From assembly GCA_030583845.1 (NCBI GenBank), contig CP129478.1:343175-407174 (forward strand): a stretch of 64,000 bases of DNA, in the 5' to 3' direction. A model generated the notes under the pieces. That model saw only the letters and a program-made list of their open reading frames with translations. It ran no database searches and was not told the origin of the DNA. The translations under genes and the position numbers were made by a program. This document shows, piece by piece, positions 953-44,791 of the stretch (position 1 is its first letter; the number at the start of each line of letters is the position of its first letter). The DNA comes from Candidatus Dojkabacteria bacterium. GTDB lineage: Bacteria; Patescibacteriota; Dojkabacteria; SC72; JAHDCA01.

Positions 953-1029
953 TGGCGCATCCGGAGGGACTCGAACCCCCAACACTCGGTTCCGAAGACC
1001 GATGCTCTATCCAATTGAGCTACGGATGC
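953..1029 (-). tRNA. tRNA-Arg (anticodon UCG), CCA encoded
   Basis: Manual cloverleaf: acceptor GCATCCG/CGGATGC, D-arm GCTC-AATTGGATA-GAGC, anticodon stem TCGGT/ACCGA with loop CTTCGGA (U33, anticodon TCG, G37), T-arm GGGGG-TTCGAGT-CCCTC, discriminator G then CCA. Confidence 0.85.
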
Positions 1030-1224
1030 ATCTCCAAAGTCCAAAATCATTTACCCTCGAAGTTGCGAATGAATTACTTCCTATTTTACCACCTTGATAC
1101 CGACTCTGCACCAATCATGTGATCGTTAGTTTCACTCCGTCCCATGCGCGTTACACGGTTTTTACACTCATTTAGATCGTTAAGTCTGCAGTACCAGCGG
1201 CCATATGGCTATAGGACAGTAAAT

Positions 1225-1298
1225 CGTACCCGGACGGAATCGAACCGTCAACCTTCAGCTCCGCAAGCTGATGCTCTATCCAGTTGAGCTACGGGTAC
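1225..1298 (-). tRNA. tRNA-Arg (anticodon GCG), no encoded CCA
   Basis: Cloverleaf: acceptor GTACCCG/CGGGTAC, D-arm GCTC-AACTGGATA-GAGC, anticodon stem TCAGC/GCTGA with loop TTGCGGA (U33, anticodon GCG, G37), T-arm GACGG-TTCGATT-CCGTC. GCG is unusual: most bacteria use ACG read as ICG. Confidence 0.75.
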
Positions 1299-1364
1299 AT
1301 AATCGTCAGGTGATTTTACCCGACGACATCAATAACCGCAACCAACCTATGCCGTTTCGATTTC

Positions 1365-2021
1365 TCACTTCTTGGGCACAACCTGACCACCCATTGCCTT
1401 ACCCAGCCAGGCGATCCCAGCTCCGAAGAGGAAGCCACCAACGTGTGCTCCCCATGCTACGCCGCCCTCGCCATTGCTATAGCTCAACAAACTGTTTAAG
1501 AACTGCAAAGCAAACCAGAACGCTAGTAGATACTTCGCACTAATATCATAAATCCCAACGCGAGGATATGCAATTATAAAGCTCTTGATTTTGCTTTGTG
1601 GAAAAGCAACCGCATAATATCCAAGCACTCCTGAAATTGCTCCGCTCGCTCCTATGATTGCCACATTTGTGTCCCACGAAATCCCTAACTGGACAAGTGC
1701 GGCAACGAGCCCAGCTACAAGATAAAACAGCAGATACTTCCCACTCCCCATCTTCGCCTCAACGTTATCTCCAAACACCCAGAGGTACCACATATTTGAG
1801 AATAGATGTAGCGCCCCACCATGGATAAACATAGATGTAACAAGTGTAAGCCACTCGCCATTTGCAATTAGCTCTGTTGGGATCAGTGCATAGCTCTGCA
1901 GAAACAGTTCAAGATCTGACTGCAGGTACTGAAAAACGAAAAAGAGGACATTTATTAGAATAAGTACGACTGTTACCACTGGGAAGATCTTTGATTTTTG
2001 CGAGTCGCTTATTGGCCACAT
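1365..2021 (-). CDS. Rhomboid-family intramembrane serine protease
   Basis: 218 aa, multiple TM segments, motifs HGGALHLFSNM, GASGAISGVLG (GxSG catalytic Ser) and AHVGGFLFG (catalytic His). Confidence 0.8.
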   Translation of the reverse strand: MWPISDSQKSKIFPVVTVVLILINVLFFVFQYLQSDLELFLQSYALIPTELIANGEWLTLVTSMFIHGGALHLFSNMWYLWVFGDNVEAKMGSGKYLLFYLVAGLVAALVQLGISWDTNVAIIGASGAISGVLGYYAVAFPQSKIKSFIIAYPRVGIYDISAKYLLAFWFALQFLNSLLSYSNGEGGVAWGAHVGGFLFGAGIAWLGKAMGGQVVPKK

Positions 2022-2216
2022 CTTGTTGAAATTCTAGCATCTGATGAGCTAAAGAACTAGCAAACTTCCTTTGACTTTCAGAAAGTCAAGATTTCTCTCC
2101 ACCGCTCTTTCATTAAAATTTAATGGAATCTGGCTTGAATGCAGCGCAATCCTCTACACTTACCTCTACATGATATGAGACGAAACACACATTTTAATGG
2201 TATAATGCTCACCGTT

Positions 2217-43063: not shown

Positions 43064-43250
43064 CCTTCACTCCAGATTAATTAAAGATATCGCATTAACT
43101 ATTCACCATATTAACATACTACACCCGTCATTTTGCATTCGATAGTTTGACCTATAATCTAACCCTATGCTATAATTTTCCAGCACTATATAGGGATATA
43201 GTTTTGCTTACTGCACAAGGAAAATTGTTAAATTGTGAAAGGTTGTACCC

Positions 43251-44138
43251 ATGGGATCAATAAAGAACCCTCAATTTAAAACCCACCACGACAGCTTCAT
43301 AAACGACCTCAAAGGAAAGGGTCGGTCGGACGCCACAGTTATCGCTTACTCAAAGGATATTGAGCAGCTTTTAAATTTCTTTTCTACAAGAGGTATTTCA
43401 TCGCTGAACAATACCAGCATCGAGGATCTCGAAGCCTTTAAAAGAGACCTAGAGGATAATAACTATACACCCAAGAGTGTTTCAAGAAAGATTAACAGCA
43501 CCCGCACATTCTACAAGTACCTCTTAGACAACGGACAGATCAGCGACAATCCATCTGAGAAGCTTGCTCACCCAAAATTTGAGGTAAAGCCACCACGAAT
43601 CCTTACAGAGATGGAGTATCGAGCACTCCGCGACGTAAGCCGAGTAGACCTCCGACTCTACTCTATTGTAGAGGTGCTTTTGCAGACCGGCATCCGCATC
43701 GGAGAGCTGGCAGCACTCACAATTCACGACGTCAAAGAATCAAACAGCGGCATCAAATATCTATATATCGCTCCACAGGGCAGCCACCCAGCACGCAAGG
43801 TCCCATTGAATAAGTCGGCAAACAAAGCAATCCAAGAATATCTGAAGGTACGACCTGAATCAGATGAAGATACGCTCTACATCACAAAGAATGGTCGCCC
43901 CCTACTCGTCCGCAACATTCGTACTACGATTGATAAGGCATTTGAGAAGGCTGGCATCAAGAACGCAAAGGTTAATGACCTTCGCAACACCTTTATTGCC
44001 CACCACCTATCAAATGGTGTAAGCTTGGTCACAGTTTCAAAGCTTGTTGGTCATAAGCGTCTCTCAACAACTGAGAAGTACCTGAATCTCATCAAGAAGA
44101 ATGGTGAGGAGCAGGAGAAGAGCCTTCAGGATCTTTAG
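43251..44138 (+). CDS. Tyrosine site-specific recombinase, XerC/XerD family
   Basis: N-terminal SAM-like domain; C-terminal catalytic residues R...HxxR...Y in LRNTFIAHHLSNGVSLVTVSKLVGHKRLSTTEKY. Confidence 0.8.
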   Translation: MGSIKNPQFKTHHDSFINDLKGKGRSDATVIAYSKDIEQLLNFFSTRGISSLNNTSIEDLEAFKRDLEDNNYTPKSVSRKINSTRTFYKYLLDNGQISDNPSEKLAHPKFEVKPPRILTEMEYRALRDVSRVDLRLYSIVEVLLQTGIRIGELAALTIHDVKESNSGIKYLYIAPQGSHPARKVPLNKSANKAIQEYLKVRPESDEDTLYITKNGRPLLVRNIRTTIDKAFEKAGIKNAKVNDLRNTFIAHHLSNGVSLVTVSKLVGHKRLSTTEKYLNLIKKNGEEQEKSLQDL

Positions 44139-44179
44139 ACTGTAAAGGGATCGTGAATTAAATTACGCGTTTTAATTCC

Positions 44180-44701
44180 TTGGCCATCCCTAATCCTGCA
44201 GCTAATCAACCTCACCAGGAAGACCCTACTGAAATAACCCCGTTACTCATGATTAGTCAGGAATTCGGACTCCAAAAGCTTGCCGAGGTTCCATTCAGAA
44301 GCGTACGTGCCTATATGAGCGTGGCAGGATTCACAGAAGAGGTTCGCTTTACTCCTGATGATTCACTTACTGCGATTGCATTAGATATTCTTTCAGTATA
44401 CTTTCTCCTATACGGACGAAACGGATCTTTTTCTCCGATGCCTATAGATTCAGCCTTAAACCAACATTATTCAATAGTCTCCAACCCGATTATTTCTGAG
44501 CCAGCAGATTTCATCAACACCCCTTATACTGACAAGATAGATAACCCACACCATAATGCGGAAGGGATCTCTCTACGCAGCGTCACAATCCCACTCAACC
44601 CTGCCCTCAGGCAAGGCACACGAATATACTTGGAGCCGAATATCGATCAAGAGGTCTTTACCATATATAAGATGGTCAGCAAAAACACTCCCGAGGGTTA
44701 A
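44180..44701 (+). CDS. Hypothetical protein (173 aa)
   Basis: ORF only; 41 nt downstream of the recombinase gene. Confidence 0.35.
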   Translation: MAIPNPAANQPHQEDPTEITPLLMISQEFGLQKLAEVPFRSVRAYMSVAGFTEEVRFTPDDSLTAIALDILSVYFLLYGRNGSFSPMPIDSALNQHYSIVSNPIISEPADFINTPYTDKIDNPHHNAEGISLRSVTIPLNPALRQGTRIYLEPNIDQEVFTIYKMVSKNTPEG

Positions 44702-44715
44702 TGATTAATGGGAAA

Positions 44716-44791
44716 TGGTAGGGGTGGGTGGAATTGAACCACCGGCCACTGCTTTATAAGAACAGCGCTCTAACCACTGAGCTACACCCCC
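44716..44791 (-). tRNA. tRNA-Ile (anticodon UAU), CCA encoded
   Basis: Acceptor GGGGGTG/CACCCCT (G1-U72), D-arm GCTC-AGTGGTTA-GAGC, anticodon stem CTGTT/AGCAG, loop CTTATAA (U33, anticodon TAT, A37), T-arm GGTGG-TTCAATT-CCACC, A plus CCA. A UAU-type AUA decoder is rare. Confidence 0.7.

Follow-up and report, generated by a model that had tools for sequence, protein, structure and literature searches.

Lysidine-free reading of the isoleucine codon AUA has been described in nine bacterial species from three clades (Mycoplasma, Bifidobacterium and Neorickettsia) that lack tilS and possess a tRNA-Ile(UAU); the isoleucyl-tRNA synthetases (IleRS) of these species either carry Arg or Lys at the position of the Trp residue that contacts the wobble base or are of the eukaryotic type (Taniguchi et al. 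2013, PMC3575796). Some other bacteria hold both tilS and tRNA-Ile(UAU) (PMC3575796). In the CGN box, the combination of tRNA-Arg(GCG) and tRNA-Arg(UCG), with neither tRNA-Arg(ACG) nor tadA, is found in Mycoplasma gallisepticum, M. genitalium, M. pneumoniae, M. pulmonis and M. suis; within Mollicutes, this pair is confined to genomes without ACG and tadA (six of six), and across the 46 genomes tabulated, GCG never occurs together with ACG or tadA (Yokobori 2013, PMC3711424, Table 1). The Candidate Phyla Radiation (also called Patescibacteria and abbreviated CPR) likewise appears to do without tRNA-Arg(ACG) and to rely on the anticodons GCG, UCG and CCG (Shulgina and Eddy 2021, PMC8629427), and a literature search found nothing on AUA decoding or lysidine in this group. 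Here we analyze a 64-kb stretch of the genome of a Candidatus Dojkabacteria bacterium, a member of the CPR (assembly GCA_030583845.1, contig CP129478.1, positions 343,175 to 407,174; hereinafter, the window), that encodes a tRNA-Ile(UAU) along with GCG and UCG arginine tRNAs whose genes are adjacent to each other. The tRNA-Ile(UAU) gene is conserved in related genomes and, as far as could be determined, its conservation in Dojkabacteria or the CPR at large was previously undescribed.

The window represents ~6% of a 1.04-Mb genome (1,036,382 bp; locus tags QY318_*) that is available as a single-contig metagenome-assembled genome (MAG) and, with a G+C content of ~46%, is not AT-rich. The tRNA genes were called with ARAGORN and with Rfam cmscan at the gathering threshold (RF00005). 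Both programs identify the same nine tRNAs and no others, with scores of 65-73 bits and E-values of ~1e-12 to 1e-14, that is, far beyond chance, and both agree within 1 nt with the positions and anticodons assigned in an earlier inspection of the DNA (the sequence-only reading). The genes are real, and the cloverleaf folding of their products is supported. The tRNA with the UAU anticodon (44716-44791, minus strand; 72.7 bits; 3' CCA encoded), the presumed dedicated AUA decoder, has the anticodon loop C32-U33-U34-A35-U36-A37-A38, including the U33 and A37 residues to which the sequence-only reading drew attention, and A73 as the discriminator base.

Among all tRNAs compared, tRNA-Ile1 of Escherichia coli (ileV) shows the highest identity to the UAU tRNA, 77%. 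The in-genome reference for isoleucine identity is tRNA-Ile(GAU), the AUU/AUC reader encoded in the 16S-23S spacer (31365-31439, minus strand), and the two tRNAs have in common the pairs G3-C70 and C27-G43 as well as G26 and C32; the UAU tRNA also contains the U12-A23 pair. Among CAU tRNAs, G3 and C70 are indicators of isoleucine identity (Silva et al. 2006, PMC1635315). In the related locus L220, the acceptor stem of the UAU tRNA, GGGCGTG/CACGCCC, which includes C4-G69, is nearly that of the tRNA-Ile(GAU) of the window, GGGCGTA/TACGCCC. The isoleucine isotype proposed for this tRNA from the outset is thus well supported by the similarity to E. coli tRNA-Ile1, by the features common to tRNA-Ile(GAU) and by their retention in relatives, and the shared acceptor-stem and anticodon-stem features imply that the UAU tRNA is presumably charged by IleRS.

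Loci of related organisms were reached through the flanking proteins, namely the 587-amino acid (aa) protein encoded next to tRNA-Ile(UAU) and a rhomboid protein encoded near tRNA-Arg(GCG) (best 120 homologues by similarity); FtsH turned out to be too conserved as a contig query, with at least 600 matches, mostly from unrelated phyla, and a single useful relative, L002. In the Logan contigs L214/L215, as well as in L216 and L220/L221, the tRNA-Ile(UAU) gene occupies the same site, with a XerC-like gene on one side and the gene for the 587-aa repeat protein on the other; here, the identity of the 587-aa protein to that of the window is 72%, 66% and 39%, respectively. A single loop nucleotide separates each of the UAU tRNAs of L214, L215 and L216 from the window copy. 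In L220, the anticodon arm is unchanged, the base pairs 4-69 (G-C to C-G) and 50-64 (G-C to A-U) have undergone compensatory replacements, and the G1.U72 pair of the window copy is replaced by G1-C72. Because this tRNA is nearly unchanged, with compensatory stem changes, at syntenic sites in diverged relatives, it is a functional, old gene of this subclade that is under selection, rather than a sequencing error or a one-off mutation. A pattern search of metagenome contigs, with the variable loop and the T arm fixed and either C or U allowed at position 34, yielded no C34 orthologue of the UAU tRNA, the pattern being too strict (it specified TGGCC, and the relatives have TGGTC); its seven matches are all unrelated CAU tRNAs with a GGCGGCG acceptor stem.

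The gene located 0.6 kb from tRNA-Ile(UAU) encodes a tyrosine recombinase (43251-44138), and tRNAs with the UAU anticodon and an isoleucine-type D arm are frequent in viral contigs of IMG/VR (at least 120 matches, loci L087-L206), so that the tRNA could be seen as a recent acquisition from a phage or another mobile element, inserted beside an integrase gene and external to the core decoding system. However, the recombinase resembles XerC/D and keeps its synteny with divIC in every relative, L002 included; no viral tRNA among the matches listed exceeds 82% identity; the exact 25-mer of the anticodon arm is absent from IMG/VR; the acceptor stem agrees with that of the host tRNA-Ile(GAU); and the position of the gene is stable across the relatives. 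These comparisons make a phage or mobile origin unlikely, and we give very little credence to a recent acquisition that would leave the tRNA outside the core decoding set. The 587-aa protein encoded on the other side (45025-46788, plus strand) has no Pfam match and is called "uncharacterized repeat protein, TIGR01451 family" by JGI. This fast-evolving protein (39-72% identity) is retained beside the genes for S20 and LepA in the Dojkabacteria-like contigs L214-L223, and its gene is always followed by two small open reading frames (ORFs) of 133 and 149 aa in the opposite orientation.

AUA and the CGN codons are in real use with their standard meanings. The sequence-only reading had suggested that the usage of these codons be compared; in 46 ORFs (15,903 codons), AUA occurs 255 times, which amounts to 23% of the isoleucine codons or 16 per 1000, and all four CGN codons are used, CGU, CGC, CGA and CGG contributing 15%, 18%, 20% and 6% of the arginine codons (108, 128, 143 and 46 codons), respectively. 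When the FtsH protein of the window is aligned with 60 bacterial FtsH sequences, the positions of its five AUA codons are occupied by Ile in 58% of the cases, by Leu in 27% and by Met in 0%, and the CGN codons align mainly to Arg and Lys, albeit in a small sample. Reassignment of CGA and CGG is known in Absconditabacteria; neither the codon counts nor the FtsH alignment give any sign of it in the window.

In the CGN box, the comparison with the described systems is straightforward: the genome has the same GCG and UCG anticodons as other CPR and the M. pneumoniae group, here in adjacent genes, all four codons are used, and no difference was detected in the window. The tRNA-Arg(UCG) gene (953-1029, minus strand; 67.5 bits; CCA encoded) encodes the presumed reader of CGA and CGG, and the tRNA-Arg(GCG) gene (1225-1298, with ends at 1224/1225 and 1298/1299; minus strand; 69.3 bits; G37; no encoded CCA) that of CGU and CGC; a third arginine tRNA, tRNA-Arg(UCU) (6364-6439, minus strand; 71.4 bits), reads AGA (and AGG). 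Under the proposed scheme, tRNA-Arg(GCG) would read CGU and CGC by G:U wobble and G:C pairing, in place of the usual tRNA in which ACG is converted to ICG, and tRNA-Arg(UCG) would read CGA and CGG, possibly helped by a tRNA-Arg(CCG) encoded elsewhere (there is none in the window), with no need for A34-to-I34 deamination by TadA. The claim that GCG and UCG are enough for all four CGN codons without inosine agrees with the presence of the same set in six Mycoplasma genomes that lack ACG and tadA (PMC3711424) and with the rule reported for the CPR (PMC8629427).

In L218 and L219, whose rhomboid proteins are 66% and 54% identical to that of the window, respectively, the tRNA-Arg(GCG) gene again lies downstream of the rhomboid gene, in syntenic position. 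It is also present on L001, which comes from an independent Logan assembly of this strain. L218 holds both the GCG and the UCG tRNA, adjacent to each other as in the window, and the L219 GCG tRNA shows a compensatory change of C31-G39 to U31-A39. Given the few base differences combined with compensatory stem changes at syntenic sites in diverged relatives, tRNA-Arg(GCG), too, is a functional, old gene of the subclade under selection, and not the product of an isolated mutation or of a sequencing error. Compared with E. coli tRNA-Arg(ACG) (argQ, L224:1285-1361), the UCG tRNA shows 82% identity and an identical acceptor stem, GCATCCG, and the GCG tRNA only 73% identity, which hints that the canonical bacterial ACG-type tRNA is more closely related to tRNA-Arg(UCG) than to tRNA-Arg(GCG).

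For the modification enzymes, ~50 ORFs were scanned against Pfam, ten unannotated small ORFs were scanned against NCBIfam (no matches), and all six frames were searched for the motifs SGGxDS and H[AS]E...PCxxC. Together with the 8.7 kb past the right end of the window (hrcA-grpE-dnaK-murJ-groES-groEL, with no tRNA in that segment), these searches covered ~73 kb, or ~7% of the genome, and, in addition, ~75 kb of the relatives' contigs, in part overlapping the same region. No deaminase of the CDA fold (PF00383/PF14437, H[AS]E...PCxxC) is encoded in the window, in the 8.7 kb beyond it or in the relatives' loci. As the sequence-only reading stated, there is no ACG tRNA among the nine tRNAs of the window, and neither tRNA-Arg(ACG) nor an additional CAU tRNA of the Ile2 type occurs in the ~73 kb searched. 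Considering this coverage, tRNA-Arg(ACG) and tadA could be encoded elsewhere, with tRNA-Arg(GCG) as a mere extra isoacceptor; this is quite unlikely, however, because CPR reportedly have no tRNA-Arg(ACG) and rely on GCG (PMC8629427), because GCG never accompanies ACG or tadA in the 46-genome table (PMC3711424), and because the GCG tRNA is conserved in the relatives. The genome as a whole very probably lacks both tRNA-Arg(ACG) and tadA. The arginine half of the sequence-only reading is thus correct in all likelihood, and it adds nothing new, the ACG-less arrangement of GCG and UCG having already been published for the CPR.

The reading of AUA depends in part on the identity of the two CAU tRNAs of the window, to which the hallmarks of initiator tRNAs can be applied (Silva et al. 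2006, PMC1635315). The first (42337-42408, plus strand) combines the C1xA72 mismatch with A11-U24 and the anticodon stem A29G30G31/C39C40U41 and is 93% identical to the initiator tRNA of L002; by the hallmarks of PMC1635315, it is the initiator tRNA-fMet, as the sequence-only reading proposed. In the relative L214, two extra genes (encoding a 512-aa protein and a 340-aa FUSC-like protein) are inserted between the EF-P gene and the initiator tRNA gene (L214/L215 2874-5462, compared with 41476-42605 in the window).

The second CAU tRNA (41400-41476, minus strand), of the elongator type, is encoded immediately upstream of ftsH and does have the paired G1-C72 on which its assignment as an elongator tRNA-Met was based. 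The same tRNA is found upstream of ftsH in L214, with two compensatory changes in the acceptor stem, and in L002. Its sequence identity to metT and ileX of E. coli is 70% and 71%, respectively, and its U3-A70 pair is neither the norm for tRNA-Met (C3-G70) nor an isoleucine indicator (PMC1635315). The similarity to ileX, which matches that to metT, and the missing C3-G70 pair could be taken to mean that this is tRNA-Ile2(CAU), a substrate of TilS, in which case a lysidine system would exist beside the UAU tRNA. Nevertheless, this CAU tRNA has none of the isoleucine indicators G3, A3, C70 and T70 and lacks the frequent C4-G69 and C5-G68 pairs (PMC1635315); it also lacks G3-C70, G26, C27-G43 and C32, which are found in both isoleucine tRNAs of the same genome. 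Conversely, its 9-nt D loop, TTCGAnT T loop and 7-66 and 49-65 pairs are the same as in E. coli metT, and its syntenic orthologue in L002 (L002_e) closely resembles C3-G70 CAU tRNAs from metagenomes. Taken together, these features make an Ile2 identity improbable and suggest that this is most likely an elongator tRNA-Met; the paired G1-C72 stands, and the assignment itself is to be read as probable rather than certain, with the ambiguous identities of 70% and 71% in mind.

The proposal for the AUN box is that AUA is read by the dedicated tRNA-Ile(UAU), charged by IleRS. If tilS and tRNA-Ile2(CAU) are absent, this tRNA alone would decode AUA, as is the case in Mycoplasma mobile; IleRS would have to accept U34, and misreading of AUG would be avoided through modification of U34, competition or some property of the ribosome. 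Neither the window nor the relatives' loci yielded a match to TilS (PF01171, SGGxDS), nor did L226 or the 8.7 kb past the right end, and ileS is missing from the window and from every other locus obtained. In several Mycoplasma genomes, tilS adjoins ftsH (PMC1635315). Next to ftsH in the window, there is no tilS, the EF-P gene and the CAU tRNA gene being present instead, and tilS is likewise missing beside ftsH in the CPR loci L002, L006 and L053.

Several observations weigh against a TilS-free system. The absence of tilS, tadA, tRNA-Arg(ACG) and tRNA-Ile2(CAU) pertains to ~7% of the genome; the elongator-type CAU tRNA, with its U3-A70 pair and comparable similarity to Met and Ile2 tRNAs, does not lend itself to clean classification; and no UAU tRNA is found at the syntenic site (the only site considered) in L002, L217, L222 and L223, so that the trait may be confined to a subclade, in a pattern that fits the later addition of this tRNA to an existing TilS system. 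The coverage of ~7% and the missing UAU tRNA in these four relatives, along with the near universality of TilS in bacteria and the documented coexistence of tilS and tRNA-Ile(UAU) in Lactobacillus casei, L. plantarum, Cyanothece and Ferrimonas (PMC3575796), are compatible with redundant decoding of AUA, whereby tilS and tRNA-Ile2(CAU) are encoded elsewhere in the genome and the UAU tRNA is a supplementary decoder. An indispensable decoder, however, better fits the near-invariance of the UAU tRNA, with compensatory changes, down to 39% identity of the neighboring protein, as well as the heavy use of AUA, which would be harder to reconcile with a spare tRNA; the lack of tilS next to ftsH, where it resides in several Mycoplasma genomes (PMC1635315), also speaks against redundancy. 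We regard redundant decoding as a tangible but somewhat doubtful possibility.

Weighing the long-term conservation of the UAU tRNA and the heavy AUA usage against the near-universal presence of TilS and its documented co-occurrence with tRNA-Ile(UAU), we lean slightly toward the absence of both tilS and tRNA-Ile2(CAU), with the UAU tRNA as the sole AUA decoder. Overall, the observations are best compatible with inosine-free decoding of CGN combined with the reading of AUA by tRNA-Ile(UAU) in Dojkabacteria, an explanation that we consider moderately probable. The stricter proposition, namely a Dojkabacteria subclade that lacks both TadA and TilS and reads a frequent AUA codon by tRNA-Ile(UAU) alone at 46% GC, has about an even chance of being correct. 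The interpretation offered by the sequence-only reading is a reasonable hypothesis that goes beyond what the window alone establishes.

The closest described counterpart is the system of M. mobile, also found in M. haemofelis, M. suis, Bifidobacterium and Neorickettsia, with which the present one has in common the UAU anticodon, the isoleucine-type tRNA body, the frequent use of AUA as an isoleucine codon and the small genome of a reduced lineage (1.04 Mb here). The sequence-only reading was not quite right in limiting this strategy to a few bacteria with reduced genomes, given that Bifidobacterium, too, lacks tilS and carries the UAU tRNA (PMC3575796). In contrast to these organisms, Dojkabacteria belong to a different phylum, within the CPR, and the genome is not AT-rich; furthermore, the M. 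mobile type is characterized by the loss of tilS, the adaptation of IleRS (Arg or Lys at the position of E. coli W905, or the eukaryotic type) and ribosomal discrimination between AUA and AUG, all of which are putative in the system described here. With the bacteria that combine tilS and tRNA-Ile(UAU), such as L. casei, L. plantarum, Cyanothece PCC 7424 and Ferrimonas balearica, the common element is the UAU gene, which in those species is accompanied by a lysidine system.

A further parallel comes from archaea, which decode CGN with tRNA-Arg of the GCG, UCG and CCG types and among which Nanoarchaeum and Korarchaeum have tRNA-Ile(UAU). The archaeal CGN box thus relies on G34 rather than I34, as here, and UAU serves for AUA in a few archaea with tiny genomes. 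Unlike in archaea, however, the rRNAs, the initiator tRNA with its C1xA72 mismatch and the proteins of the window (e.g., Rho, EF-P, FtsH and LepA) are all bacterial.

More generally, the gene content of the window is bacterial and CPR-like, including UvrA, ComEC/ComEA, LeuRS, Rho, RadA, a Clp ATPase and S1, in addition to FtsH, EF-P, LepA, RecF, SufS/NifU, SHMT and FolD; the NCBI proteins WKZ31442 (LeuRS), WKZ31446 (Rho) and WKZ31473 (LepA) are identical to the window proteins. In L215, synteny ends after SufS, and a gene for a MoxR-like AAA protein takes the place of SHMT. The partial ORF at the start of the window (1-938, minus strand; more than 312 aa) lies just past both arginine tRNAs and runs off the end of the sequence. 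The two remaining tRNAs identified by both ARAGORN and Rfam are tRNA-Ala(GGC) (14180-14255, plus strand) and tRNA-Ala(UGC) (31240-31313, minus strand), the latter located in the rRNA spacer together with tRNA-Ile(GAU). The 3' CCA is encoded in four of the nine tRNA genes (Arg-UCG, Arg-UCU, the elongator-type CAU and Ile-UAU). The initiator tRNA gene lacks CCA in the window but has it in L002; hence a CCA-adding enzyme must be present.

The 23S rRNA gene (27850-31003, minus strand) is 3154 nt long, compared to ~2900 nt in E. coli. When it is aligned with rrlH of E. coli, one insertion of 131 nt (30596-30726) becomes apparent behind E. coli position ~270, along with five expansions of 16-29 nt; no Rfam intron matches were found. 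Insertions in rRNA are typical of the CPR. Two replication and repair genes are split. DNA polymerase I is represented by two ORFs in different frames (36557-37672 and 37852-39309, minus strand), which correspond to the 5'-3' exonuclease part and the polymerase part, unlike the intact 885-aa PolA of the relative L002. The ATP-dependent DNA ligase consists of an N-terminal/adenylation piece and a C-terminal OB piece (34606-35058 and 35208-36473, minus strand). In both cases, the split could be genuine, or it could reflect pseudogenization or indels in the assembly.

TilS and TadA are regarded as essential and near-universal in bacteria, so that each lineage without them represents a simpler way of reading the AUN and CGN boxes. 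If the loss of tilS in Dojkabacteria is real, the solution found in M. mobile would extend to a large uncultured radiation, and lysidine-free AUA decoding would have an independent origin in a fourth clade, the first one reported in the CPR, as far as we could find. Such a system would entail co-adaptation of IleRS along with some mechanism by which AUG is rejected, and would provide a natural pair of IleRS and tRNA-Ile(UAU) for work on AUA/AUG discrimination and on the reassignment of the AUA codon. TilS is also among the bac120 markers of GTDB; if its loss holds true, the missing marker in MAGs of this kind would reflect real biology rather than incompleteness.

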